Shown: positions 1,856 to 25,484, counted from the first letter of the stretch. The stretch is DNA of 32,000 nucleotides from Microcystis aeruginosa NIES-843 (GCF_000010625.1 NC_010296.1:2910001-2942000), one strand, 5' to 3'. Program-made: numbers and translations. Notes: generated by a model from the sequence alone, not told the origin.

Positions 1856-2467
1856 TTAGCTAATCATCGCCAATAAACCTTGATAAAAAATCTGAAAACT
1901 AGGAGAACAATTATGAGCAGGAGTCATAAATTGAGAAATTTCTCGGGCTGCTTTCACTTTTTCTAAACCTCCTCGATCATACCCAGCTTTTTGAAGTATC
2001 TTTTCTAAGTTTTCCCAAGTTCCCCCCGTAATTTCATCGGGTTTTCTGTATTTTGCTTGCTGTCCCACATTAGTAGAAACTTTGGGATAGGCTGAGACTA
2101 TAGCCTGAATATCACCAAAAAACCAAGCTTCTAGTTCTTCTATAGCAATTCTATTTAACACCTGAAATGTTTTTTTATCTTCACTAATCGTTTTGGTGAT
2201 CAGTCCTGTTTGTTGGGCAATATTTTCTAACTTTTCTTTGAGCATTTGACAATCTTCATTGTCTCTATCTACAAGAATAATGATTCGATAATCATCGGGT
2301 ATCCAGCATTGATAGCCTTTTAATCGCTCCGGTAGTTTTTTGATTAAATCGGATTTACCTCGAAAGGCATGAATTTTATAGGTGACATTCTCAAATAATA
2401 TTTTAGGTAAAATTTGATTTAAACATTCTTGGGTAGAAAATTCTTCAACTAAAAATTCAAGATGCAC
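1856..2467 (-). CDS. DUF4276-like small protein with Toprim-type acidic motifs, a putative nuclease effector
   Basis: 203 aa. An N-terminal strand FLVEEFST, ILVDRDNED (DxD) and IEELEAWFFGD fit the DUF4276/Toprim-like pattern. The start is 24 nt downstream of the ATPase stop and is preceded by GGAGG. Confidence 0.65.
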   Translation of the reverse strand: MHLEFLVEEFSTQECLNQILPKILFENVTYKIHAFRGKSDLIKKLPERLKGYQCWIPDDYRIIILVDRDNEDCQMLKEKLENIAQQTGLITKTISEDKKTFQVLNRIAIEELEAWFFGDIQAIVSAYPKVSTNVGQQAKYRKPDEITGGTWENLEKILQKAGYDRGGLEKVKAAREISQFMTPAHNCSPSFQIFYQGLLAMIS

Positions 2468-2491
2468 TTTTTCCCTCCTTTGCTATTAAAC

Positions 2492-3679
2492 TTAAATGCT
2501 AGGATTACCCACATCAAAATAGTCCTCCATCCATAATTGACCCAACAAAGCACCATTTTGAATAAATTCCTTAACTCCTTGCATTGCTGAAGTACGTTTA
2601 GCTTGAGTAAAACCATTTTCATCTCGATAAAGTACCCAAACCTCCTCTGGTTTCAAACCATCTACAAAAAAGGGAGAATGAGTTGTTACCATTAATTGTG
2701 TACTTGCGGTCGCTGCCCGACATTCTTCTGCTAATTCAGGTAATAAACGGGGATGAAGATGATTTTCTGGTTCTTCTATTCCCAGTAATTGCGGAGGGCT
2801 TGGATCATATAATATAGTTAAATAAGCCAACATTTTTAAAGTGCCATCGGAGGCAAATTTGGCAAGAATTGGCTCTTGAAAAGGTGCGTCTTTAATTTGA
2901 AGTAAAAGCTGTCCATTCGGCATAATAGATGCTTCTACTTTTTCTAATCTGGGAATTCGACGAGAAAGGGTTTGTAAAATAGATTCTAATCGTTGAGGAT
3001 GATCTTCTTTTAAATATTGAATAACATTAGGTAAATTGTCACCAGTTGGCGATAATCTTTCTTGCGCTCCTGCTTCTGGTTGAGTGCGAGTATTATCTGC
3101 GGTTAAGTAGGAAAGATACCAACTTGTGATAAAACGACGCAAAGCACTAACCCGGGGATGTTTGGCCAATTGTCCGAGGGTACTAACAGCTAAAAATTCC
3201 GGGGAGTCTAATCGTTCAGAGATTCGTTCATCTTTTGGTTTGGGATTTTCTCCACTAATCACTATTCCTCCCCCTTCTTTAAAGTCTAAAAAGCGATAAG
3301 GTTTGCCCTTCGCTCCTTGTCTCCACTGTAACCATTCTTCGGCAACATAAGGGCGATTGTTAGCTTCATTAATAGCCAAATGATAGGTAATTAAAGGTGA
3401 TGCCAATTTTTCTCGATATTTTAATTCGATAATGATGTAACCTTCTTGTCCTCTGGTTCTTAATTCTTTAAATCTTCCCCGTCTGTCCCAAGCTTTTTTT
3501 AAACCAACAGTAAAACATTCAGAGAGGAAAGCAAAGACATCAAATATGGTAGATTTTCCGCTCCCATTAGGACCGAGAAAAACGGTTAAAGGAGTAATGC
3601 TTTTTAATTCTAAGTCCTGTAAAGCTCGGTAATTTTGCACGCGCAGATTTTCGATTCGAGGTATAGAGTTTTTAGACAT
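2492..3679 (-). CDS. ABC-type (AAA_15/AAA_21, OLD/AriA-like) ATPase
   Basis: 395 aa. Walker [10 protein letters not shown], signature-like SDGTLKML, Walker [14 protein letters not shown] and H-loop TTHSPFF are all present. Confidence 0.85.
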
Positions 3680-4288: not shown

Positions 4289-7105
4289 TTACTGTTCACT
4301 AGCCACTGCTTGGGGTTGTCCTTGCGGTTGGAATTGGAACAGGGAATAAACCACGTTACGACGGATATCAATCATCATTTCTAAAAACATCTCGTAGCCT
4401 TCCTGTTTATACTCAATTAGGGGGTCTTTTTGACCGTAACCGCGTAAACCAATCGACTCGCGTAAAGCTTCCATAGCTTGCAGGTGTTCGCGCCATAACA
4501 TATCGATTTGTTGCAGGATAAAATAACGTTCGGCATCGCGCATTAAACCGGCGCGAATACTATCCACTTGACGTTCCTTAATTTCGTAGGCTTTGCGAAC
4601 TTCTTCGTGTAGGAACATCTTGATATCATTAACACTCATCTCCTCGACATCTTTAGCGGTAATATCTGCCAACAGATAGACGAATTCCTGAGATTTACTA
4701 ATCAGTTTTTCCAAATCCCATTCTTCCGCCGGCAGTTCGGGATTAACATAAGCCATGACGATTTCATCCATGGTTTTTTCGGCGTATTGCAGCACCTGTT
4801 CTTTTAAGTCCATCCCCTCCAAAACCCGACGACGTTCGGCATAAATAGCGCGTCGTTGATTATTCATCACCTCGTCGTATTCAAACACCTGTTTCCGGGC
4901 ATCATAATAGAAGGTTTCCACTTTTCTTTGCGCGCCTTCCAGGGAACGAGTTAACATTCCCGACTCAATGGGCATATCTTCTTCCACCCGGAAGGCATCC
5001 ATTAAACCCGCCACGCGGTCGCCACCAAAAATCCGCAATAAATTGTCTTCTAGGCTTAAAAAGAAGTGTGTAGAACCGGGGTCGCCCTGTCTGCCCGCCC
5101 GGCCTCGCAATTGGTTGTCAATACGGCGGGATTCGTGGCGTTCCGTCCCGATAACGTGCAGTCCGCCCCTTTCTACTACTTCATCGTGTTCTTTACCCGT
5201 GTAATCTTCATAACTTTTGCGAATTAATTTATAGACTTCCCGTAACTTTTGAATAACCGGGTCATCCGTGGGAGCTTTTTCGGCCGCGATGGCGATTTTT
5301 TCTTCTACTTCTAATTCGGGTAAACTTTGAGTTCCGTGGGTATCAACGGCAAATTTAACCGCTTCTTTCAGGGCATTTTCTACCTCTTTCGGTAACTCGG
5401 TGGGAAAAATTTCCGCCGAGGCACGCCAGTTTTTTTTCTTCTTACCCGGGGCGAATCCTTGCGGGCGATTGCGTTCTCCTAAACTGGGTAAACTAAAGGC
5501 CAAATTGTCATCCTCGGGCATAACTAATTTCGGCATTAAATACTCGCGAATTTTCAATCGGGCCATATAGTCGGAGTTACCACCGAGGATGATATCGGTT
5601 CCCCGTCCCGCCATGTTCGTGGCAATGGTTACGGCCCCGGCCCGGCCTGCTTGGGCGACGATTTCCGATTCCCTTTCCACGTTTTCCGGACGAGCATTAA
5701 GTAAGTTATGGGGAATATTCCTTCCCTGTAATAAAAGCGAAAGCACTTCCGATTTTTCCACACTGGTGGTACCGACTAAAACCGGGCGACCCTGTTCGTG
5801 CATTTGTTGACATTCTTCAGCGACGGCGTTCCATTTTGCCTGTTCATTTTTATAGACCACATCGGCTAAATCTTGCCGACGAGAAACGCGGTTAGTGGGA
5901 ATAATTGTTACTTGCAGGTTATAGACTTTTTCTAGTTCCGTTTCTTCGGTTTTGGCCGTCCCGGTCATGCCAGATAATTTCGGATAGAGTAGGAAAAAGT
6001 TTTGATAGGTAATCGTGGCTAAGGTTTGGGTTTCCTGTTGAATTTCCACCCCTTCCTTAGCCTCCACTGCCTGATGTAAACCATCGCCCCAACGTCGCCC
6101 CGGTAATACCCGTCCCGTGAACTCATCAACAATAACAATTTCACCACTGCGGACGATATAGTTAACGTCTTTTTTCTGGAGTTCTTTGGCACGAATAGCG
6201 TTAGAAATATAGTGCGCCCAGGGATTTTCTTGGTCGTATAAATCGGTAACTCCTAATAGTTCTTCCGCTCTTTTAAAGCCTTCATCGGTCATTAAAACGT
6301 TACGGTCTTTTTCGTTAACTTCGTAGTCTCCCGGTCCGTCTTCTACTTTTTGGCGCACTAATTGCTTGGCGATTTCGGCGGCGAGAATATATTTTTCTGT
6401 GGGTCGATCGATCGGTCCTGATATAATTAATGGAGTTCTGGCCTCATCGATAAGAATGGAGTCCACTTCGTCGATAACGCAGTAGTTAAAGGGTCTTTGG
6501 ACAACTTCCCCCATCACTGTAGCCATGTTATCGCGCAGATAATCGAAGCCGAGTTCGCTGTTAGTGGTGTAGGTGATGTCACAGGCATAATTTTTCTTTC
6601 TTTCTTCCGGACTCATGCCGGCTTGAATTAGTCCCACACTTAACCCTAAAAAGCGGTGTACCTGCCCCATCCATTCCGCGTCACGACGGGCGAGATAATC
6701 GTTAACGGTGACGACGTGAACCCCTTTTCCGGTCAATCCATTCAAATAAGCGGGGAGAGTGGCAACCAGGGTTTTTCCTTCCCCGGTTTTCATCTCGGCG
6801 ATTTGTCCTTTGTGCAGTACCATTCCCCCCAATAACTGCACGTCAAAGTGACGCATCCCTAAGACTCGGATTCCCGCTTCCCGGACAATGGCGAAAGCTT
6901 CGGGGAGGATTTCCTCGAGAATCTCCTCTCTTTCGTCATAATTTCTGGCTTTGTCTAATCTTTCCTTAAATTCGCTGGTTTTGCTCCTTAATTCCTCATC
7001 GGACAGGTTTTTAATGTCTTCTTCCAGCAGGTTGATTTCGGTGACGAGGGGCTGAAATTTTTTAATTTTGCGGGCGTTGGGGTCTCCGAGTAGGGCTTTT
7101 AACAT
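4289..7105 (-). CDS. secA: Preprotein translocase ATPase SecA
   Basis: 938 aa, with canonical SecA sequence throughout ([62 protein letters not shown]). Confidence 0.97.
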
Positions 7106-7856: not shown

Positions 7857-10800
7857 TTAACTAAAGGGGAAACCACCATATTTATGGATAATTATATCTA
7901 TAGTTTCCATAATTGCGATCGATTCGCCCAAAATGGAGATAATTTGTTGATAATGTTCTAGGTCATCGTAGCTAAGGTGGCGACCTTTGCGGTCTTTTAG
8001 CCACTTCTGACACACTTGATAACCGCCGATATAAAAGTTCCAAATTTGAGGCGGAATCCCCGCAAAATACTGGTCAGAATTAATCGAAATTTGTTGTTTA
8101 TTTTCGTCATATTTCACCTGTTCGACTAGATTAGAACCCGCCACGGGATAGCTACTAATTTCTTTTCCCGTTGCTTTCATCAGGTGTAACTGTACTAATC
8201 TGTCACCTTTTTTGACTAATTCCCAGAATAATTCTTTATTACTGGTGAGAGGAACGCGAGGAAAGTCTATTTTTAAAAATTCGGCGTAACGTTGGCGATA
8301 TTGGGGAGAGTGAAAGACCGCATAGATATAGTTAAAAATGTCTTCTGGTCCAAAGGTTTTCTTTTCGTCTCCTTTGCCATCACTGATAAATTCTAATTCA
8401 AGTTTTGCCGAAAGTTTGTTAATAAATTCTGGCGCTAGATTGGGACGGCGACCATTTGGCGAGTTGGTTGGTTCTGTGTCAAATAGCGTTGGGGTATTGG
8501 TTGGGTAAAGATAGAGGGGAAAAATATTAACTCCACCTCTTCTAAAAATATTAGTATCAATGGCATTCTCAAAAACAGTAATCAAGGCCCATTCAGGATC
8601 ATTAACCGCAATTCCTTGACGACCTATACCTATACCAATGTTATTCTTATTCATCGTATGCTGAATTATTTCATGCCTCAACCGATTTACTAAAGCATCA
8701 TGATGATAATAAGGTCTAATATCAAGAGGTCTATATAAACATTGAGTGAAATAAGATTGCCAATTAGATTCAGATGTAAAAGATTTTCTCTTTTGATTTA
8801 AATTCCAATCTAAACTGTCTTCCAACTTATATTTATTTTTTATTTCTGAATCATTTATAAGTGTATTTCTAAAGTCATTGATTCGCTCGATTAATTTAGC
8901 TTTATCAAAATCATAGACAAAGTGATCTCTATGGGTTTTGATACCAGAACCGTTTGTCAACATGATTGTATCAAGTTCCCAATATTTTTGATATTCATCA
9001 GATGAGACTTTGCTCTGAGGATTAAATAGGTAAAAATCTGATTTGGGATTTATAATTTCCCATTCAGTTGAACTAATATCATTTTCATCTAACCAATAAT
9101 ACTTACCCCCAACTAACTCCTTATGCTCTTTAACCTCTCTAACACCCCACAAATCAGCATGATAAACCTGCGCTAAATCTTGCTGACTATCTTGATACTT
9201 AATAAAAAACGCAATCGCTACTCCTTGCTGAATATCAAACACATTTTGATCGGTTGAACCATCGGGACAAACTTCTTTTTTCTTGCTATTCCCATGCAAA
9301 TCTAAAACATAAATCTCATCAAAAGTCTGCATCAAATTTTGACGCATTCCCCGAAAAGTGGGATTATCCAAATAACCATGATTTGTAATTAACGCCACAA
9401 CTCCATAACCAGTTTCCGCTACCCGATACTGAGCAAAGCGAATAAACTTCACATAATCATCTAATAAACCTTTAGGGTTTCTCTCTCCCAATGGTTTTCC
9501 ATCTAATTGATAATAATCCTTAACCAAATTCACAATCCAAGGGTCAGTATTCATCGACTGATAGGAATAGGGTGGATTGCCTAAAATCACCATAACTGGC
9601 ATTTCTTGCTTAACATCTTTTGCCGCGGCTGCTTCATCGCGAATACGATTTAAAAAACCATCAGCAGGGGGAATTTGAAAAGCTTCCTGTAGGGTGTTGG
9701 TGAGATAGATTCCCAAGCGTTCATCGGCACTAAAATCATAGCCTAATTCCTGAAGTTGTAAACCTAATTTCATGTGTGCTACGGTGTAGGGAGCCATCAG
9801 TAATTCAAACCCAAAGAGACGGGGTAATAAATGTTTACTGACATAACTAGACCACATCCCTTTCTGTTGACGAAAACTATCATAGATATGGTCGATAACA
9901 GAGTGTAAAAAAGTGCCTGTTCCCACAGCAGGATCGAGGATTAAAACTTGGTGAACTTCCTGAGTTTCTTGGCTATTATTAGGATTTTTAATCGTAATTT
10001 TTTTGGCATCGGCCAAACCTTTAGGAATCTGAAACTTATTTTTTAGAATATAGTCCACACTGCGAACCATGTAAGAAACCACGGGTTCAGGGGTATAATA
10101 AACCCCCCTAGACTCACGCATTTTACTATCGTATTCGGCTAAAAAAGTCTCATAAAAGTGAACTACAGGATCCTGCTTGCGCGTGCGTTTTCCAAAGCTG
10201 CCGAGAATCCCCTCCATATCCGTTTGTTGTAAAATAGTCGCTAGAGTATCCACGGCCCAAGTAATCCGCTCATCTAATTCTGTACCAGCAATTTGATGAA
10301 AAATTCCCCGCAAAAAAGGGTTAGTTTTCGGTAGTCGAAATCCCGCCGTTTCCCTGGAAAAAGAACTTATTTGATCCGTATTACAGCGTGCTGCGAATAA
10401 ACCATAACAGATTGTTTGTGCATACATATCCGCGAACTGCGCTTCATTGAGATCACTAATTAAAACTCGTTGAAAAGATTGCAATTGTTGCCGCAACATT
10501 CCCCCACAATCTTGATCTTTTAAAGCTTGGCCGATTGCGTCTCTAATTAACTGCGCTAAAGCGGCCATTTTTTTGGCTAATTCTCGCGGTGTTGTGATCT
10601 GAATAACTTTTGAGAGGAAAAACTGACAGAACAATTGTTCTACTTGTAAAATACCCTGGGAATCAGGTTTAATTTGCTTTTTTTGATTAAGACTTGCCAC
10701 GGCAGCTGATAGACGCAATTCTCCCGATACATACCAACGAAATTCTAAATGATCGGTGATAATTAAATTACCCAAAGCCTGTAAATAACGTTTTATTTGG

Positions 10801-11072
10801 GGAGTATTTTCAACCTTTTTGAGAGAAGTTCCGATATCTTTTGCTTCCAGATGGCCAACTTCTACCATACCCTGATTAATCACAAAATCCGGAGCGCCAC
10901 AAGCAATCCTTTTGGGTTCATTGAGAGCTTGTAGGTTATTATTTAGGGATTCAATTAATTTTTTTAAAGCAGGACGATAACTGTGTTCTGTGGCCTTACC
11001 CTGTTGATAAATGCCTGTGATTTCCTCTAGATATTTTGGCAGTGAGTTACTCATTATCGTTGCGACATACAA
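7857..11072 (-). CDS. Single-polypeptide type IIG/IIL (MmeI-like) restriction endonuclease plus N6-adenine DNA methyltransferase, with a Type-ISP-like C-terminal domain
   Basis: 1071 aa. The N-terminus has a PD-(D/E)xK motif (GAPDFV ... GHLEAKD). SAM motif I is ILDPAVGTGTF and catalytic motif IV is GNPPYS. The C-terminus reads FPRVPLTS...LHLM and GGYQVCQKWLKDRKGRHLSYDDLEHYQQII, as seen in Type ISP / PglX-like C-terminal domains. The start may instead be Met7 (11054). Confidence 0.8.
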   Translation of the reverse strand: MYVATIMSNSLPKYLEEITGIYQQGKATEHSYRPALKKLIESLNNNLQALNEPKRIACGAPDFVINQGMVEVGHLEAKDIGTSLKKVENTPQIKRYLQALGNLIITDHLEFRWYVSGELRLSAAVASLNQKKQIKPDSQGILQVEQLFCQFFLSKVIQITTPRELAKKMAALAQLIRDAIGQALKDQDCGGMLRQQLQSFQRVLISDLNEAQFADMYAQTICYGLFAARCNTDQISSFSRETAGFRLPKTNPFLRGIFHQIAGTELDERITWAVDTLATILQQTDMEGILGSFGKRTRKQDPVVHFYETFLAEYDSKMRESRGVYYTPEPVVSYMVRSVDYILKNKFQIPKGLADAKKITIKNPNNSQETQEVHQVLILDPAVGTGTFLHSVIDHIYDSFRQQKGMWSSYVSKHLLPRLFGFELLMAPYTVAHMKLGLQLQELGYDFSADERLGIYLTNTLQEAFQIPPADGFLNRIRDEAAAAKDVKQEMPVMVILGNPPYSYQSMNTDPWIVNLVKDYYQLDGKPLGERNPKGLLDDYVKFIRFAQYRVAETGYGVVALITNHGYLDNPTFRGMRQNLMQTFDEIYVLDLHGNSKKKEVCPDGSTDQNVFDIQQGVAIAFFIKYQDSQQDLAQVYHADLWGVREVKEHKELVGGKYYWLDENDISSTEWEIINPKSDFYLFNPQSKVSSDEYQKYWELDTIMLTNGSGIKTHRDHFVYDFDKAKLIERINDFRNTLINDSEIKNKYKLEDSLDWNLNQKRKSFTSESNWQSYFTQCLYRPLDIRPYYHHDALVNRLRHEIIQHTMNKNNIGIGIGRQGIAVNDPEWALITVFENAIDTNIFRRGGVNIFPLYLYPTNTPTLFDTEPTNSPNGRRPNLAPEFINKLSAKLELEFISDGKGDEKKTFGPEDIFNYIYAVFHSPQYRQRYAEFLKIDFPRVPLTSNKELFWELVKKGDRLVQLHLMKATGKEISSYPVAGSNLVEQVKYDENKQQISINSDQYFAGIPPQIWNFYIGGYQVCQKWLKDRKGRHLSYDDLEHYQQIISILGESIAIMETIDIIIHKYGGFPFS

Positions 11073-17248: not shown

Positions 17249-17277
17249 CGGCTAGATAGCATCCGAGGCAACTTTGA

Positions 17278-17420
17278 TTACTTCTTAATTATCCCTTTGG
17301 TCGTGCTTTGATGACATCCGAGCAAGACGGCCATTTGCCGTTGAGATAAATTTCCCTCTTGACTAGGTTGGTAGAGCAAGTTTCTTTGTTCTATGTTAAG
17401 ATGTTGGTGGCTTAGTTTTT
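17278..17420 (-). pseudogene. Possible IS30-like transposase N-terminal HTH fragment
   Basis: The minus-strand frame reads ...HLNIEQRNLLYQPSQEGNLSQRQMAVLLGCHQSTTKGIIKK*. This resembles the HL(T)xEER...G.SQR.IA..LG...ST HTH of IS30-type transposases. It has no start codon and no catalytic domain. Confidence 0.3.
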
Positions 17421-17667
17421 GGGATTTGTTGTTGCATTGATCGGACAATACCTCATGAGCCTTTCTCTGTCAACTCTTAAGGAGTCGTGCGTTTCATTTT
17501 TGAATTGGCGATTTAAGATCAGTTTTGTTTAAGTATCTTTTACCATGACTTCTACATCGAACTTTCAGCCGACGATAGTCTCAGAGTTTTAGCCGACCTC
17601 GAACTCAGGCTAGTTGCTCATTTTCACCGCAAAAACTGCATCCATAAATTTATCGCCGAATTTTAGC

Positions 17668-19557
17668 ATGGAAATTGACACAATACTGCAGCAAATTGAT
17701 ATTGGAGAAGACCAAGAATATGAGTTTAAATCAGCCGAGGGAGGCTTGCCAAAAGACATTTGGGAAACTCTTTCAGCTTTCGCTAATACCGATGGCGGTT
17801 ACATTATTTTGGGTGTTAGCGAAAAGAAACCTAGATTAGAAATTACAGGAGTGCGTAACCCTAAAAATCTTCAACAAGAGTTTTGGGATAACCACAACAA
17901 CCGACAAAAACTGAATATATCTATCTGTTCTAATTCAGACGTAGAAGTAAAAAAGATTAATGAATATCAGCTTCTCATTATTCATATTCCTAGAGCTACC
18001 CGAACTCAGCGTCCTGTATATATTAACAATAACCCAATGACTGGTACATATAAGCGAAATTATGAGGGAGATTATCGCTGTCATAAGGAGGAAATAGAGC
18101 AAATGTTTCGCGATGCCAGCAATGAACCTCAAGATTTTCAAGTTTTAGATAATTTTAATCTCAACGATATTGATCCTGATACTCTGAAAGTATTTCGCCA
18201 ACGGTTCAGCAATCGCGAACCCGATCATCCTTGGTTAGCATACAATGATCAACAATTACTCCATCAGTTAGGAGGATGGCGACGAGATAGAAATTCTAGC
18301 AAAGAAGGATTAACTGTAGCGGGTTTACTCATGTTTGGACGAGAACGCAGTATTTTAGATGCTTTCCCCCATTATAGTCTCGACTATCAGGAAAAATTAT
18401 CTGACGATCCTGAAAAAAGATGGACATATCGCTTAACTCTTGATGGTAAATGGGAAGCTAATTTACTTAACTCTTATTATCGTGTTTATGGCAGATTAAT
18501 TAATAATTTAGATGTTCCTTTTCAATTAGACAAAGATGCCGTTCGTAAAGATGAAACCCATGTTCATGAAGCTTTAAGAGAGGCTTTAGTTAATACTTTA
18601 ATCCACGCCGATCACCAGTCTTCACGGCCTATAAAGGTGGTAAAATCTATCGATGGCTATCTATTTTCTAATCCCGGTCGTCTGAGAATTCCCCTACAGC
18701 GTCTCTATGAAGGCGGTACTAGCGATCCTCGTAATCCTCATCTACAAAAAATGTTTCAAATGCTCGGATTAGGTGAAAAAGCTGGCTCTGGATTTGGGAA
18801 AATTCTTCGTGCTTGGAAAGAACAACAATGGTTGAGTCCCCTAGTTTCGGAAAAACTTGACCTAGAAGTTACATCTGTTAATTTACCGATGACAAGTTTT
18901 ATTCCCGAAGCAGTTGAAGTGGAATTAAAAAGGATTATCGGGGATGCTTACCGTCAGTTAGGTGATCTTGATAGGATAATATTAGTATTAGCGCATCAGT
19001 TTGAGGAAATTAGTAATACTGACATTCAGCGTTATCGATCAGAACATCCCAGAGATATTAGCGAACGCCTTCGTAATTTAGTTCAAAATGGCTGGTTACA
19101 CCAGTCAGGTAAGTGTCGGGGAACACGCTACACCCTACCGAACCAGAATTCTTCAGCGCAACTTTCTCTATTACCAAGCTCCGAACATTACCCACCAAGC
19201 TCCGAACATTACCCACCAAGCTCCGAACATTACCCACCAAGCTCCGAACATTACCCACCAAGCTCCGAACATTACCAACAGTTAGAGGCAATTGCTGAAC
19301 CCATACGCAGAAAAGGCCGCATTAGTAAAGACTCGGTACGAAAAGTGATTCTTGAACTATGCTCCCAACAATATCTACCCCTCGGAACATTAGCTCAACT
19401 GCTCGGAAGAGAACCTGATACTATTCGTAATCACTATGTCAACCCGATGATAGATGAGGGATTGCTGGAGCTTAAACACCCCCAACTAAGGAACCATCCT
19501 CAACAAGCTTATCGAACAGTATCTCGATCGCATTTCCTATCAGCGCAAGATGAGTAA
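17668..19557 (+). CDS. Schlafen/AlbA_2 (divergent AAA) plus HATPase_c_4-type protein with two C-terminal winged-helix modules; usually annotated as a putative transcriptional regulator or ATP-binding protein
   Basis: The N-terminus EDQEYEFKSAEGGLPKDIWETLSAFANTDGGYIILGV is a typical AlbA_2 domain. The middle region reads HEALREALVNTLIHADH...NPG. The tail ends HPQLRNHPQQAYR. I prefer the ATG at 17668 over the TTG at 17614 listed in the track. Confidence 0.8.
   Translation: MEIDTILQQIDIGEDQEYEFKSAEGGLPKDIWETLSAFANTDGGYIILGVSEKKPRLEITGVRNPKNLQQEFWDNHNNRQKLNISICSNSDVEVKKINEYQLLIIHIPRATRTQRPVYINNNPMTGTYKRNYEGDYRCHKEEIEQMFRDASNEPQDFQVLDNFNLNDIDPDTLKVFRQRFSNREPDHPWLAYNDQQLLHQLGGWRRDRNSSKEGLTVAGLLMFGRERSILDAFPHYSLDYQEKLSDDPEKRWTYRLTLDGKWEANLLNSYYRVYGRLINNLDVPFQLDKDAVRKDETHVHEALREALVNTLIHADHQSSRPIKVVKSIDGYLFSNPGRLRIPLQRLYEGGTSDPRNPHLQKMFQMLGLGEKAGSGFGKILRAWKEQQWLSPLVSEKLDLEVTSVNLPMTSFIPEAVEVELKRIIGDAYRQLGDLDRIILVLAHQFEEISNTDIQRYRSEHPRDISERLRNLVQNGWLHQSGKCRGTRYTLPNQNSSAQLSLLPSSEHYPPSSEHYPPSSEHYPPSSEHYPPSSEHYQQLEAIAEPIRRKGRISKDSVRKVILELCSQQYLPLGTLAQLLGREPDTIRNHYVNPMIDEGLLELKHPQLRNHPQQAYRTVSRSHFLSAQDE
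19174..19278. repeat. Perfect 21-bp tandem repeat x5 (ccaagctccgaacattaccca), in frame within the CDS
   Basis: Read directly from the sequence. It encodes (PSSEHYP)x5, and only the last unit differs, at its end. Confidence 0.97.
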
Positions 19558-19612
19558 ACACCCGCTCCTCAAATCCGAGAGATTAAGGGGACTACATCGG
19601 CAAGCCACTAAT

Positions 19613-21160: not shown

Positions 21161-22165
21161 CTAAAATTGGCGGAGAAAGCGGATATCGCTATTATAACAA
21201 CGGCGAATATCGTCTATCTCATGTAATACCATAGCAAATCTTTCCACGCCAAAACCAGCAGCAAAACCCGTATAGATTTGGGGGTCATAACCGACTGCTT
21301 TTAAGACATTGGGATCCACCATACCACAGCCCATCACCTCCAACCATTTGCCTTTCCACTGCACATCTACCTCGGCCGAGGGTTCAGTAAAAGGGAAGTA
21401 GGAAGCGCGGAATTTAACCGGTAAATCGGCCCCAAACATTTGCTTAAGAAATTCTTTAATTGTTCCTTTCAAATCCGTAAAGGTTAATCCCCGGTCCACC
21501 GCTAATAATTCCACTTGATGGAAAACCGCGGAATGGGTTGCATCCACGGTATCGCGACGATAAACCCGGCCCGGGGCCACAATCCGAATCGGGGGTTCGT
21601 GACTTTCCATGTAGCGAATCTGCACCGGGGAGGTATGGGTCCGCAATAAACGACCATCACTCAAGAAAAAAGTATCCTGCATATCCCGGGCCGGATGGTC
21701 AGCAGGGATATTTAAAGCCTCAAAATTATAATAATCGCTTTCTACCTGCGGCCCGGTGGCGATGCTGTAACCCAGACCGACGAAAATATCGATCATGCGA
21801 TCAACTGTGCTATTTAAGGGGTGAATTCGCCCTAAAGGACGGCTCAGAGCAGGTAGGGTGACATCGAGGGTTTCCGCCGCTAATTTCGCCTTAATTTGGG
21901 CATTCTGGAGACTTTCTCGCCGGGATTCCAGCAGCGATTGTACTAATTCTTTGACCTCATTAGCGATCGCACCTAATCGCGGTCTCTCTTCGGGGGTTAA
22001 TTTGCCCATTTCCCGTAAAATCTGCGATAATTCTCCTTTCTTACCCAGATAATTCACCCTTAGCTGTTCTAAGTCTTCTAGGGTTGTTGTTTGTTCGATG
22101 GAATTTTCCGCTTTCGCTGCCAGGGTTTTTAGGGCAGTTTCGATCGGATGGGGGGATAAACTCAT
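21161..22165 (-). CDS. pheS: Phenylalanine--tRNA ligase alpha subunit
   Basis: 334 aa. Class II aaRS motifs are present ([42 protein letters not shown]). Confidence 0.96.
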
Positions 22166-22207
22166 AATTAGGGCATTTTATAGGGCAGCATTCTAGTCTA
22201 GTTTATC
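22120..22207. repeat. 88-bp direct repeat, copy A (first 46 nt of pheS plus 42 nt upstream)
   Basis: It is identical base for base to 24901-24988, at an offset of 2781 bp. Confidence 0.97.
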
Positions 22208-22389
22208 AAGAGAGGGAATTTGGGGAGACAGTTGCAGGGGCGATTTGCTTTCCGGGGTGACGATTCCCTGAGATGGTTTGCTGTATCATGTTCATCGCTC
22301 CCTGTCCCCTCTGATCAAATGAGAGCTTATTGCATGAGTGCCTCGTCGAACCTAGAACTTTCAATGGGAACCAGCTTCTCTTGATTGCA

Positions 22390-24729
22390 TCAGATTTCTG
22401 GTTTTTTTAAAATGAACTCGATCGAGGCAAAAACCGCAGATAATTCTAGTTTAGTTGACGAGGAGAGTTTCTGGTAAACTTCGGCAATTTGATTAGAAAA
22501 ACTATAGACTAATTTATTCTCCATATAGAGAGGATGTCCAATATAGTGGGAATCTTTAAGAATTTTTTTCAGTTTGTTGACTCGCTTCGGTGGAACAATT
22601 AACACAAGTTTTCCTGCCAGTTCTGGATAAATTTTTAGTAATTCCATAAAGCGATCGATTCCTGTGGTGATCGGTGTACTGGTTTCTACTTCAAAAGCGA
22701 ACACTGCATCGCCTAAGTTATTAAACCAGATGAGATCGATCTGTTGTATTTTATCTCTGTCCCACTTTCCTAATTTATCGATCGGTAATTTTTCTAGAGA
22801 AATATCTTTAAAAGCTTCTCCATTCCAATAACCTGTAGATTGTTCTTTTTTGCCAATATAAGGCTTTAATCCGACAGCAATAGCAATTTTTGCCAGAGCG
22901 TAGATAATTTGATCGTGAGGAATTTTATCTGCTTGTTTGGGAAAATCTAAACCAGTTAAAACGGAAGAAATTGGCTCTATATTTAAATCGAGAGTTAGCT
23001 GAAGACCTTCTTCTTGCCCTAGTTGCCAGTGCCGACCATCGGGAGAATAAGCTAACTTTTCTAAAACCTTTAAAATCGATTGATCGCTTGGTGTTGTCCC
23101 GTTGATCAGGTTAGGCATGACCGCAAAAATAATTTCATCAAAAGTTGCTACTTTTCCCTGTCGTTTTTTGGCAGTTAGAAAATCCAAGAGATAAAATCTT
23201 ATTCGATCTTCTAGCGGAATAAAGCAACCGATTTTCGTATTTGTACGAATTCTCCAGAGATGATCTAATTCCGAAAAGTTGAATTCCTCTTTTAACAAAG
23301 GAGTAATATCATCTATTTGTTTCTTGACTTGGGTTAGTAAGCCATTTTCCAATAATTTAGGAATGAGCGCATTATAAATATCTTCTGTGGAAGCACCCGA
23401 ACTTTTAACGATTGTCATCTCGGCCACTTCTTTAATAATTTGCAGGATATCGATCCCGACTTTACTGATGGCGATTGTTTTGGGATTATTCACTTTTCTA
23501 AAGTTTAAAACTAACTCTCCCGATAGGACAGTCAGAGGATTTTTCTTTTTGTGTAATGAGGGCGTAGTAGAATGTTGTACAGAGGAATTTACATACTCAA
23601 AACCAGCTTCTTGAGCAGATTTAACGATCGCATCCCAATAGGCGGGATCTTTGTGAGCAAAAACAATACTCATCCAGCGATCAAATTTCAAAACTCGAAA
23701 CATTTCTCGAATGGAATTCGATAACAAATTGATGTAAGTTTCTTTCGATTTCTTTAAATCTCCTCCTTCGATCGCTTCCAATTCTCTTGCGTTATCGCTC
23801 ACTTCAAATCCTAGCCAAGCATTCCACATAGTCGAGAGATCTAAATAGGCAATATGTTGTCCGTAGGGAGGATCGGTATAGATATAATCCACGGATTCGG
23901 ACGATATGCCAGTTAAGTCCGTCGCTGAGAAATCAAAAATTGAAAAATTTTCTTGATAAAAATCACCGATTACTGTATTAGTTTCGATCTTGAATTTTGC
24001 CGTCCCCTTAAATTTCTGCTCAAATTGTTCCCAGACATTAAGATCGATAGTTTGAGGAGGAATCCAATAGCGATAACGGTGCATAATTCCGCTATTTCCC
24101 CGGCTTTCTATTCTTCCTCTCGTGGAACTAAAGGTTAAATTGGTTTTATTGAGAGTTGCCGAGAAAGTAAACCTCATTAAATCTTTAATGATCGGATCGG
24201 TGATTAATTCAATCTGGTTGAGAATTAGAGAAAGGGAAAATAATTGACGTTTGGTAAACAAATTTTCTACAGATTCTGCGTCCGCATTTTTCGGTAAACG
24301 AACCCCTTGCGGATACCAATAGGGAATCTCTAAATCCGCCGCTTCTTCTGGAGACATTCGATAAACTTCCTCAATCTTTTCCTGACAATTTCTGGCGATG
24401 TCATCGAAAGCAGACCGAAAATCATCGATGTTAACGGGACTAACAGCGATATTGCGGCAGATAAAACCAGCCATCGGGTTAATATCCGAGTAAATCGCCT
24501 TTCGCTTTAAAACTAGAGCCTCTACCGCAGTCACTCCCGATCCCCCAAAGGGATCTAAAACCACATCTCCCACCTGACTAAAACGCTTAATATATTCCTG
24601 TACCACATTCCAAGCGCGCCGGGTAAAATAGGGATGACTTCCCCAATGGCGTAACGTCCCTTGTTTTTTGGGATCGATCGGCCCAGAAATGGGATCGATC
24701 ATTCTATAGTCGAAGGAGGAAGCACTCAT
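22390..24729 (-). CDS. DNA (N6-adenine/N4-cytosine type) methyltransferase with a ~370-aa uncharacterised C-terminal extension that ends in a possible PD-(D/E)xK-like domain
   Basis: 779 aa. SAM motif VLDPFGGSGVT lies at aa 57-67 and catalytic TDPPYG at aa 285-290. The C-terminal region reads IDLIWFNNLGDAVFAFEVETS (aa ~664-684). Confidence 0.85.
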   Translation of the reverse strand: MSASSFDYRMIDPISGPIDPKKQGTLRHWGSHPYFTRRAWNVVQEYIKRFSQVGDVVLDPFGGSGVTAVEALVLKRKAIYSDINPMAGFICRNIAVSPVNIDDFRSAFDDIARNCQEKIEEVYRMSPEEAADLEIPYWYPQGVRLPKNADAESVENLFTKRQLFSLSLILNQIELITDPIIKDLMRFTFSATLNKTNLTFSSTRGRIESRGNSGIMHRYRYWIPPQTIDLNVWEQFEQKFKGTAKFKIETNTVIGDFYQENFSIFDFSATDLTGISSESVDYIYTDPPYGQHIAYLDLSTMWNAWLGFEVSDNARELEAIEGGDLKKSKETYINLLSNSIREMFRVLKFDRWMSIVFAHKDPAYWDAIVKSAQEAGFEYVNSSVQHSTTPSLHKKKNPLTVLSGELVLNFRKVNNPKTIAISKVGIDILQIIKEVAEMTIVKSSGASTEDIYNALIPKLLENGLLTQVKKQIDDITPLLKEEFNFSELDHLWRIRTNTKIGCFIPLEDRIRFYLLDFLTAKKRQGKVATFDEIIFAVMPNLINGTTPSDQSILKVLEKLAYSPDGRHWQLGQEEGLQLTLDLNIEPISSVLTGLDFPKQADKIPHDQIIYALAKIAIAVGLKPYIGKKEQSTGYWNGEAFKDISLEKLPIDKLGKWDRDKIQQIDLIWFNNLGDAVFAFEVETSTPITTGIDRFMELLKIYPELAGKLVLIVPPKRVNKLKKILKDSHYIGHPLYMENKLVYSFSNQIAEVYQKLSSSTKLELSAVFASIEFILKKPEI

Positions 24730-24773
24730 CTGGCCTTAAGAATAGAGTTCTATATATTACTGTACCCAGATGT

Positions 24774-24893
24774 GAGGGTATGGCGAGGATACCCTCTTGG
24801 GAGCATCCTACGCACTGCCGGAGGAAGTCCGGCTCTTGTTGCCGTTTCTCGGCAACAGGTGGGGAAAGCACCCCAGAAATCGAATCCTCGGCC
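24774..24893 (-). other. Densely structured ~120-nt leader between the pheS' fragment and the methyltransferase start (candidate cis-regulatory or ncRNA element)
   Basis: Four consecutive perfect hairpins lie at 24774-24796, 24817-24833, 24837-24857 and 24860-24875. A 9-bp helix (24782-24790 with 24884-24893) could close the last three. The strand assignment assumes co-transcription with the methyltransferase. Confidence 0.3.
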
Positions 24894-24946
24894 TTAGTTT
24901 CCAGGGTTTTTAGGGCAGTTTCGATCGGATGGGGGGATAAACTCAT
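24874..24946 (-). pseudogene. Duplicated 5' fragment of pheS
   Basis: The first 15 codons ([15 protein letters not shown]) are identical to pheS. The next ~9 codons are diverged but still homologous (ETKAEDSIS versus AAKAENSIE). After that the sequence is unrelated. Confidence 0.85.
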
Positions 24947-24988
24947 AATTAGGGCATTTTATAGGGCAGCATTCTAGTCTAGTTTATC
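24901..24988. repeat. 88-bp direct repeat, copy B
   Basis: It is identical to 22120-22207. Confidence 0.97.
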
Positions 24989-25187: not shown

Positions 25188-25484
25188 ATGTCAATTTATG
25201 TTGGTAATCTCCCCTTCGAGGTTGACCAAGACGACGTAGTTGAGGTTTTTAAGGAATATGGTGAAATCAAGCGCGTTCACCTCCCCATGGATCGGGAAAC
25301 GAAAAGAAAACGCGGGTTCGCTTTCGTGGAAATGGAAACCCCAGAGCAAGAAGCGAAGGCTATTGCCGCTCTTGACGGCGCTCAATGGATGGGACGAGAA
25401 TTAAAAGTCAATCAAGCTCGTGAAAAAGAACCCAGATCTTCCTTCGGTGCTGGCGGCGATCGCAATCGGGAGCGTCGCTACTAA
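25188..25484 (+). CDS. RRM-type RNA-binding protein (cyanobacterial Rbp family)
   Basis: RNP2 is IYVGNL and RNP1 is KRGFAFVEM, followed by a short Gly/Arg tail. I prefer the ATG at 25188 (98 aa) over the listed upstream start. Confidence 0.9.
   Translation: MSIYVGNLPFEVDQDDVVEVFKEYGEIKRVHLPMDRETKRKRGFAFVEMETPEQEAKAIAALDGAQWMGRELKVNQAREKEPRSSFGAGGDRNRERRY

Follow-up and report, generated by a model that had tools for sequence, protein, structure and literature searches.

A solitary methyltransferase cassette between duplicated pheS starts in Microcystis aeruginosa NIES-843, with sister-lineage-type pheS remnants at its ends

We have characterized a methyltransferase cassette at the start of pheS in Microcystis aeruginosa NIES-843 and found pieces of a sister-lineage-type pheS locus nested between the cassette and the perfect 88-bp repeats that enclose it. 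This solitary methyltransferase cassette probably resided previously in a sister-type duplicated pheS start and entered its present site by homologous recombination, giving rise to an insertion with long target duplication. The site is precisely empty in several related lineages, and occupied loci share a single pair of junctions. All coordinates refer to the analyzed stretch of 32,000 nt (the window).

Background

Insertion with long target duplication has been described for restriction-modification and methyltransferase genes (Nobusato et al. 2000, Gene 259:99; Furuta, Abe and Kobayashi 2010, NAR 38:2428, PMC2853133). Table 3 and the text of the 2010 paper include a comparison of M. aeruginosa NIES-843 with PCC 7806, in which an orphan M is accompanied by 88/88 direct repeats (Fig. 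S7(h)). Judging from the species, the strain pair, the designation 'orphan M' and the 88/88 repeats, our locus is almost certainly that case, and the basic finding is thus already known. In the main text of that paper we found no proposed mechanism for long target duplications. Relative to that main text, the nested sister-type pheS flanks appear to be new here, and we also add the states of the locus in the population and a predicted restriction-endonuclease-like C-terminal domain in the 'orphan' methyltransferase.

In this bloom-forming cyanobacterium, the mobile orphan methyltransferase is an accessory epigenetic gene placed ahead of an essential gene without harm. Its presence/absence polymorphism offers natural strain pairs in which the methylation motif and expression from pheS signals can be studied, and the donor-type pheS remnants give a testable handle on how long target duplications arise. 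The nested-allele signature is also open to search in the Helicobacter, Haemophilus and Neisseria cases.

Results

Repeat search and pairwise alignment of the window identified a direct repeat in which 22120-22207 and 24901-24988 are identical (88/88 bp), an exact match that cannot have arisen by chance in 32 kb. It belongs to a longer direct repeat (22098-22207 and 24879-24988, spacing 2781) in which the 23 nt beyond the 88 bp match at 14/23 positions. The pheS ATG lies at 22165, and each copy therefore consists of 42 nt of upstream sequence and 46 nt of coding sequence. On re-measurement, the perfect duplication, its offset of 2781 and its 42 + 46 nt composition proved to be exactly as in the initial annotation. 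Among the loci scanned, the window and the occupied loci (15-18 kb) each contain two copies and the empty loci contain one; the repeat is a unique pheS start, which makes a high copy number unlikely.

All features from the outer repeat copy to pheS lie on the minus strand and are described in that direction. The outer copy (24901..24988; pheS -42 to +46) is of resident type, follows on from the native rbp-pheS intergenic region and has the same sequence as the single copy of empty sites L002 and L010. The rbp gene (25188..25484, plus strand), which encodes an RRM RNA-binding protein, is the divergent, native upstream neighbor of pheS and is separated from the (outer) pheS ATG by 241 nt in occupied and empty sites alike. 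The outer copy is followed by 23 nt of sister-lineage-type pheS, codons 16-23 (+47 to +69; 24878..24900), and then by the cassette core: a GC-rich (53%), structured leader of 148 nt (24730..24877), the 779-aa methyltransferase ORF (22390..24729) and a 154-nt 3' tail (22236..22389) without similarity to sister-lineage locus L107 or to resident intergenic DNA. Next, pheS upstream DNA of the sister-lineage type (28 nt, -70 to -43; 22208..22235) directly abuts the inner copy (22120..22207), which supplies the start of the intact pheS and, in its 42 nt, the only native upstream DNA of that gene. A -10-like box, TATAAAAT, lies within these 42 nt, promoter positions in this work being consensus guesses only. 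The intact pheS (21161..22165; protein accessions BAG03034.1 and BBH38261.1) encodes 334 aa with PF01409 and PF02912.

Between the repeat copies are 2693 bp of unique sequence, including 182 nt from the inner copy to the methyltransferase stop codon (22390-22392). The initial annotation had assigned this interval to the methyltransferase and its leader only; both are present, but the interval also contains 23 nt and 28 nt of pheS-locus DNA at its ends, and the actual insert core is 22236-24877 (2642 bp). On its right flank, the window has the same sequence as M. viridis NIES-102.

Independent assemblies and metagenome contigs with these junctions number at least 20, and the junctions are identical in all occupied loci with readable junctions (eight aligned and three more). 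Most occupied loci contain the 88-bp repeat twice, and in L007, L017 and L019 a SNP is confined to one copy. Identical junctions together with single-copy SNPs point to one old event that has since spread through the population. A false duplication of the pheS start during assembly, considered earlier, has only the general risk attached to perfect repeats in its favor; since a complete genome has the same structure, since this recurs across many independent assemblies from NCBI, JGI, ENA and Logan, and since SNPs separate the two copies in some strains, it is scarcely credible.

Empty sites occur in several Microcystis lineages (L002, L010, L114-L122 and the PCC 7806-type genomes L134-L137) and consist of rbp, 241 nt and pheS with one 88-bp copy, in the order outer left flank, 88 bp, inner right flank. 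Such precise empty sites bear out the earlier proposal, in which the 5' end of pheS received a methyltransferase cassette and its start became duplicated, and they show the cassette to be polymorphic for presence and absence among Microcystis rather than an ancient fixed locus. Presence and absence are scattered over flank haplotypes: the empty L002 differs from occupied haplotypes by at most one mismatch per 1.2-1.5 kb on each side, its left flank resembling L006 and its right flank L008. Because the flanks are mosaic in this way, their haplotypes give no polarity between excision and ancestral emptiness. The states found in the population are full, variant leader, 5'-replaced, 5'-truncated and empty.

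The pheS-locus DNA at the cassette ends resembles a sister lineage more than it does the resident genome. The comparison behind this assignment covers 23 + 28 nt, with L107/L108 as the one sister-lineage locus and L110 as the one variant haplotype. The diverged homology that had been noticed beyond the outer copy (ETKAEDSIS versus AAKAENSIE) is real: the match to the window's own pheS (14/23 nt) has P of about 3e-4, and within a shared K-A-E-x-S-I core the differences are mostly synonymous third positions. The match to L107 pheS is closer, at 20/23 (P of about 7e-10), and the N-terminus of the L107 PheS (P0159) reads ...TLETNAEDSI compared with ...TLETKAEDSI in the stub ORF that starts in the outer copy. 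At the other end, the 28 nt sit at the position collinear with L107 and agree with it in 25/28 aligned columns, the alignment having one 1-nt gap and a local score of 39 against 15.1 +/- 2.4 for shuffles. The occupied variant haplotype L110 is nearer still to L107 on both flanks. Beyond -42, the resident and L107 upstream regions have no similarity. Sister-type sequence at both cassette ends suggests that the duplication once extended over about 139 bp (-70 to +69), with the 23 nt and the 28 nt as its left and right remnants. The initial annotation had the cassette 'bringing or regenerating' a pheS start, and 'bringing' is partly right, as the 23 nt are a fragment of another lineage's pheS. 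In the search for a donor with the full sister-type duplication of ~139 bp, no such locus was found: a metagenome scan with a leader 33-mer returned three contigs, all of the standard arrangement, and a search with the stub-ORF protein returned L110 as the only variant.

These flanks bear on another reading, de novo insertion into the resident genome with an 88-bp target duplication, in which the 23 nt and 28 nt are chance similarity or ordinary cassette sequence. It accounts for the perfect repeat and for exactly one copy at the empty site, and the published case is tabulated in this way in the 2010 paper (PMC2853133). We regard it as improbable, since the 23 nt keep the pheS frame in addition to their agreement with L107, and since none of 500 shuffles scored as high as the 28 nt, which match at exactly the collinear position.

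An ancient event in situ is a stronger competitor, although still unlikely. It supposes that a duplication of ~139 bp (-70 to +69) formed when the cassette inserted in early Microcystis, that the flanks are fossils of the ancestral allele, that functional pheS codons 16-23 and the outer left side diverged later while conversion maintained the 88 bp, and that all empty sites are deletions between the repeats. It explains without coincidence why homology between resident and L107 sequence ends exactly at the -42 end of the repeat, and it fits three further observations: the 28-nt, 88-bp and 23-nt pieces each differ from L107 by about 11-16%, as one coherent haplotype would; the 'TLET' of the stub also occurs in outgroup PheS N-termini; and within Microcystis the methyltransferase has diverged by about 1%, much as the flanking genes have. 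Against it, the functional pheS would have to gain at least 6 of 9 differences in the 23 nt, many of them synonymous, with at most three falling to the unconstrained stub, and all empty lineages, including the whole P0140- and PCC 7806-type clades, would have to be secondary deletions. The homologous gene in Pannus, moreover, is located elsewhere, without the leader, the tail or pheS. Entry of a cassette already flanked by sister-type pheS is the reading we prefer.

Among the matches listed, Pannus is the closest genus that contains the gene, and what it shares with Microcystis is limited to the ORF and 38 nt upstream (82% nucleotide identity). The methyltransferase genes of Pannus, Lyngbya and Planktothrix stand in unrelated contexts among the same matches. 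No flanking repeat was found around the Planktothrix homolog. The Lyngbya homolog is associated with a 67-nt, 82% repeat that resembles a palindromic repeat element.

An accessory gene beside a housekeeping gene with direct repeats around it also recalls a site-specific integrative element with 88-bp att sites, or a transposon with its target-site duplication. Such an origin is very improbable here. As first observed, no integrase or transposase lies between the repeats, where the methyltransferase is the only ORF with a family match, and there is none beside the insert. A tRNA scan of the window found no tRNA. The best terminal inverted match at the core ends is 8 nt, equaled in 93/1000 shuffles, and terminal direct repeats at the core ends were not significant. 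An 88-bp repeat also far exceeds the target duplications of transposons, and the homologous gene occupies unrelated sites in other genera.

The 779-aa protein is a predicted N6/N4 DNA methyltransferase. It matches the amino DNA methyltransferase family PF01555 (E = 3.7e-18) with both motifs of that family present: motif I, FGGSG, near residue 62 (DPFGGSG at about 59-65) and catalytic motif IV, DPPY, at 286-289, where D286, P287 and P288 show no variation across 25 homologs and Y289 almost none. PDB sequence matches include M.MboIIA, M.RsrI and CcrM, and the cassette gene is annotated here as a putative solitary Type II methyltransferase. The base composition of the cassette core is foreign, with 38.6% GC in the methyltransferase ORF and 40% in the core compared with 47.8% in pheS.

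After the N-terminal methyltransferase come helical domains in the middle of the chain and, at the C-terminus, a predicted restriction-endonuclease-like domain (NmeDI_C, PF27126, a precomputed assignment). In this alpha/beta domain, the acidic residues D665, E680 and E682 are invariant across the family. Its model has a pLDDT of 92.5, and the top Foldseek matches are restriction endonucleases or restriction-endonuclease-like folds, with E values of 0.08-0.4 that are not significant; the full-length structure search was dominated by generic Rossmann methyltransferases and returned nothing informative on the C-terminus. Some Microcystis lineages retain only the C-terminal 265 aa beside pheS, which argues against a free-standing toxic nuclease.

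The leader RNA has a predicted fold of -70.1 kcal/mol (z = -4.8 against shuffles). Its last 38 nt, which include a -10-like box (TAATAT) and a Shine-Dalgarno sequence (AAGG), accompany the gene in Pannus, DNA homology to the Pannus locus starting at 24767. The L110 leader has 82 extra nt. An intron or a riboswitch in the leader was ruled out, no Rfam family being matched at the gathering threshold anywhere in the window, leader included. The stub ORF (24704..24946, minus strand, 80 aa) runs from the duplicated pheS ATG through the leader to a stop 26 nt within the methyltransferase ORF. It has no Pfam or NCBIfam match and is not conserved: it spans 92 aa in L110, where it ends ahead of the methyltransferase start, and is broken by a 7-nt insertion in L111 and L113. 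A consensus scan for sigma-70 promoters and terminators gave counts no higher than in shuffles and nothing in either repeat copy, and no terminator-like site was seen in the 3' tail. It is plausible that the methyltransferase is driven by pheS signals and that it is co-transcribed with pheS; excision through the 88-bp repeats is likewise plausible.

Discussion

We propose that the cassette did not arrive naked: its left end would have carried +47 to +69, and its right end -70 to -43, of a sister-type pheS locus from an earlier residence where the pheS start region would have been duplicated over about 139 bp. Homologous recombination between the carried pheS fragment and the resident pheS start may then have admitted it: an excised copy may have integrated ends-in (Campbell-type), or a double crossover may have been followed by conversion. 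The 88 bp of perfect identity would be the stretch over which homologous recombination or gene conversion has left both copies with the resident allele. Its left edge at -42 would mark the end of homology between the resident and sister-type upstream regions, and its right edge at +46 the onset of a highly diverged block of pheS codons. A single crossover alone would not make both copies resident-type over 88 bp; mismatch correction, conversion or a donor identical over that stretch would be needed. Since the promoter-proximal 42 nt and the start codon both lie within the duplication, pheS stays intact, and the outer copy places the full native pheS upstream region before the methyltransferase. 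Recombination between the repeats may remove the cassette again. To our knowledge, natural transformation of Microcystis is not established.

More tentatively, and with considerable doubt, long target duplications in general might owe nothing to a dedicated insertion machinery and instead mark where an excised cassette with its former host's version of the target integrated by homology (ends-in or Campbell-type), each transfer resetting the center of the repeat to the resident allele and leaving donor remnants beside the cassette, with the methyltransferase-nuclease-like protein possibly breaking the unmethylated target. If so, the flanks of a cassette would record its host-to-host itinerary.

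Ends-in integration, including the Campbell-type and gapped-plasmid forms of yeast and bacterial genetics treated by Orr-Weaver, Szostak and Rothstein in 1981, reportedly duplicates the region of homology. The Microcystis locus resembles it in that the insert lies between two target copies, that the chromosomal allele fills both around the break and that donor sequence is confined to insert-proximal positions; it differs from the classical systems in being known from sequence alone.

The protein resembles the single-chain Type IIC/IIG enzymes and R.NmeDI (PMC2095814), whose C-terminal domain gave PF27126 its name, in joining a methyltransferase and a C-terminal alpha/beta domain in one polypeptide, the nuclease-like part being a prediction only. 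It differs from them in its order, with the methyltransferase N-terminal and the nuclease-like domain C-terminal. The locus as a whole shares the features of the class described by Furuta et al.: a methyltransferase gene without a mobility gene between direct repeats longer than 30 bp (here a perfect 88 bp), a related genome that is empty with one copy and both flanks aligning (here PCC 7806-type), an insert below 20 kb without a mobile-element gene (here 2.7 kb), and a repeat that spans the translation start and leaves the target gene intact. In its basic description, as given in the main text and Table 3 of the 2010 paper, it does not differ from the NIES-843 case reported there.

Structure of the pheS locus

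Repeat searching and pairwise alignment in the window located a perfect direct repeat of 88 bp (22120-22207 and 24901-24988) with a spacing of 2781 bp, and the 23 nt that adjoin the repeat agree at 14 of 23 positions between the two sides. In minus-strand order, the locus begins with rbp, a divergent plus-strand gene for an RRM RNA-binding protein (ATG at 25188), followed by 199 nt of native intergenic DNA. Everything after that is on the minus strand: first the outer 88-bp copy (24988-24901), from whose duplicated pheS ATG (24946) an 80-aa stub ORF opens, then the gene for a 779-aa methyltransferase (24729-22390), a 182-nt tail, the inner copy (22207-22120) and intact pheS (22165-21161). ORF, Pfam, tRNA and Rfam scans of the window found no integrase, transposase, tRNA or Rfam family. 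The layout figures of the initial annotation (88 bp, 2781-bp offset, 779 aa, 182 nt) were all reproduced by the repeat, ORF and domain analyses, and its claim that the insert lacks an integrase or transposase was borne out by ORF and domain scans.

The duplication is real and is not new, since its junctions are shared across assemblies and some strains carry a SNP in one copy. Both junctions are alike in all occupied loci where they are readable (NCBI, JGI, ENA and Logan assemblies), and a SNP is confined to one 88-bp copy in loci L007, L017 and L019. Identical PheS and methyltransferase proteins recur in many Microcystis assemblies, including the complete genome AP019314, which we take to be that of M. 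viridis NIES-102 and whose right flank is identical to that of the window. The window PheS sequence is also found under accession BAG03034.1, of a series presumably belonging to M. aeruginosa NIES-843.

Empty and variant sites

Empty loci of other Microcystis lineages consist of rbp, 241 nt and pheS, with the 88 bp present exactly once. These include L002 and L010, which encode the same PheS protein as the window, all loci with PheS allele P0140 (10/10), and four loci with the allele that the sources name for PCC 7806, one of them in a complete 5.1-Mb genome. An arrangement common to all relatives, named in the initial annotation as evidence against an insertion, was not what the comparison of pheS loci gave; the empty sites in other lineages support its main inference, that the cassette was inserted at the pheS 5' end. 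Judged by sequence, an empty site is what would be expected of the pre-insertion state, or of recombination between the repeats. Presence and absence of the cassette are scattered across flank haplotypes. The empty locus L002 has at most one mismatch per 1.2-1.5 kb to occupied haplotypes on each side, but it is mosaic; this similarity shows a recent gain or loss of the cassette, in a direction that mosaic flanks do not give.

Several occupied loci carry altered cassettes. L124 and L129 have AT-rich DNA with a long hairpin in place of the leader, the outer copy and the first codons (breakpoint at window 24709). In the alignment of L125-L128, the 5' 1.5 kb of the methyltransferase gene is replaced (breakpoint at window 23226), with GroEL upstream in L125; L130-L133 were grouped with these by PheS allele, which is identical, and by gene layout, which is similar. 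These lineages, which carry PheS allele P0157, have a degraded or re-headed cassette, the degraded form being reduced to the C-terminal 265 aa, a restriction-endonuclease-like domain, before pheS. The leader is also polymorphic, with 82 extra nt (L110 about 190-270) inside the GGGTATCCTCGCCA/TACCC hairpin in L110 and, in L111 and L113, the 7 nt ACATAAC inserted into the TAATAT box that precedes the methyltransferase ATG by 30 nt. The pheS-start locus is a rearrangement hotspot, which fits the plasticity already known for Microcystis genomes.

Sister-type DNA at the insert ends and origin of the cassette

A PheS homologue with 93% identity, P0159, was found on Logan contigs L107 and L108, which represent a sister lineage. 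Its N-terminus resembles the stub's ...TLETKAEDSIS and differs from the resident PheS N-terminus. Directly following the outer copy, 23 nt (24900-24878, pheS +47 to +69) match L107 at 20/23 positions vs 14/23 for the window's own pheS. At the other end, the 182-nt tail closes with 28 nt (22235-22208) that equal L107 in 25 of 28 aligned columns (one 1-nt gap; local score 39 vs 15.1 +/- 2.4 for shuffles, 0/500 of which reach 39), and the L107 stretch so matched lies immediately upstream of its 88-bp equivalent. Because these 23-nt and 28-nt flanks match L107, both insert ends hold pheS-locus DNA of non-resident type. The true insert core is 22236-24877 (2642 bp), and the duplication was formerly ~139 bp long, from about -70 to +69. 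A second occupied haplotype, L110 (methyltransferase 98.9% identical in nucleotides, leader 82 nt longer), is nearer to L107 than the window is in both flanks, with one extra sister-type base within the outer copy. Alignment of the resident upstream region with L107 gave no significant similarity beyond -42. Synteny between Microcystis and L107 breaks exactly at pheS -42, where the 88-bp repeat has its left edge, and an unannotated 156-aa ORF (L107 3041-3655), rather than rbp, lies upstream of pheS in the sister lineage.

The locus accordingly reads as resident flank, resident 88 bp, sister-type +47 to +69, core, sister-type -70 to -43, resident 88 bp and resident pheS. Neither a recombinase in the insert nor terminal inverted repeats at the core ends were found. 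We propose that a cassette bearing a foreign allele of its target would have integrated by homologous recombination at the resident pheS start, the chromosomal allele then filling both copies wherever heteroduplex can form. The edges of the perfect repeat coincide with the limits of usable homology, which stops at -42 on the left and meets a block of 35-39% divergence from +47 on the right. The identical product would arise if a double crossover with an occupied donor were followed by conversion. Import of the cassette from another lineage is, in our view, fairly probable. The main rival, an ancient in-situ duplication in which the cassette-proximal flanks are fossils and every empty site is a deletion, accounts for the -42 coincidence as well, but under it whole empty clades must be secondary, and functional codons 16-23 must have undergone at least double the change of the unconstrained stub; we regard it as unlikely. 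The observation first made at this locus is thus confirmed, and its reading as an arrival by recombination at the pheS 5' end was essentially right.

The methyltransferase and its expression

The methyltransferase belongs to PF01555, with motif I (DPFGGSG, ~residues 59-65) before DPPY (286-289), and PF27126 (NmeDI_C) is precomputed for its C-terminal domain. Solitary genes of this ~780-aa family are widespread among cyanobacteria, Chloroflexota, Bacteroidota and others. Among the matches listed, the closest relative outside Microcystis is from Pannus brasiliensis (86% aa), where DNA homology is limited to the ORF and 38 nt upstream (window 24767-22404) and no adjoining pheS-sized ORF was seen at the locus. 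Lyngbya and Planktothrix carry the homologous gene in other housekeeping contexts. The Lyngbya aestuarii homologue is bracketed by 67-nt direct repeats (L022 5799-5865 and 8341-8407; 82% identical, each internally palindromic), candidates for a repeat element or for a target duplication that has decayed. GC content is 38.6% in the methyltransferase ORF vs 47.8% in pheS.

AlphaFold models the last 190 residues with confidence (pLDDT 92.5). The PDB entries that best match this model, EcoT38I, EcoO109I, YaeQ and BsaWI, are without exception restriction endonucleases or restriction-endonuclease-like folds, at E = 0.08-0.4 only. Residues D665, E680 and E682 are invariant in homologues, and a putative nuclease fused to the methyltransferase is possible. 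Some lineages keep the C-terminal 265 aa alone in front of pheS, which argues against a free-standing toxic nuclease.

In each 88-bp copy, TATAAAAT lies 8-15 nt ahead of the ATG and a Shine-Dalgarno sequence is absent, an arrangement that would fit a very short leader; a promoter consensus scan reported nothing at TATAAAAT in either copy. The outer copy retains the whole native intergenic region before the stub, leader and methyltransferase, and the latter has its own putative TAATAT and AAGG signals within the 38 nt common to Pannus. Since the length and frame of the stub ORF are not conserved between strains, selected translational coupling of the stub to the methyltransferase seems unlikely.

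Other genes noted in the window

A 647-aa Schlafen AlbA_2 / HATPase_c_4 protein (17614-19557, plus strand), which also matches pAgo-associated PADLOC models, is encoded in a strain-variable island (17249-19612) between cytidine deaminase and DAO oxidoreductase genes; other Microcystis strains have AbiJ, PIN/BrnT or DUF433/DUF5615 toxin-antitoxin genes, or nothing, at this spot. A second restriction-modification-type gene among the window's housekeeping genes (7857-11072, minus strand) adjoins secA (4289-7105), and its 1071-aa product carries N6_Mtase and Type_ISP_C domains and resembles a Type ISP/IIG-like restriction-modification enzyme made of a single chain. A minus-strand gene pair (1856-3679), for an AAA_21/AAA_15 ATPase of 395 aa and a DUF4276 protein of 203 aa, may be defence-related, the sole hint being the AAA_21 Pfam name 'putative AbiEii toxin'.

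Comparison with published long target duplications

According to Furuta, Abe and Kobayashi (NAR 2010, PMC2853133), the repeats of long target duplications often lie across a translation start, and the target gene is left intact. The nested sister-type flanks offer what may be a modest new clue to the origin of such duplications, and homologous integration may, with a rather low probability, be their general mechanism. [quoted passage not shown] S7(h); repeats 88/88, 88/88, 88/88, direct, Type II). We treat the window locus as this 88/88 case because the species, the PCC 7806-type empty site, the lone methyltransferase and the perfect 88-bp repeat over the start codon all agree, and on the entry in that table the basic finding is already known and is here the re-discovery of a published case.
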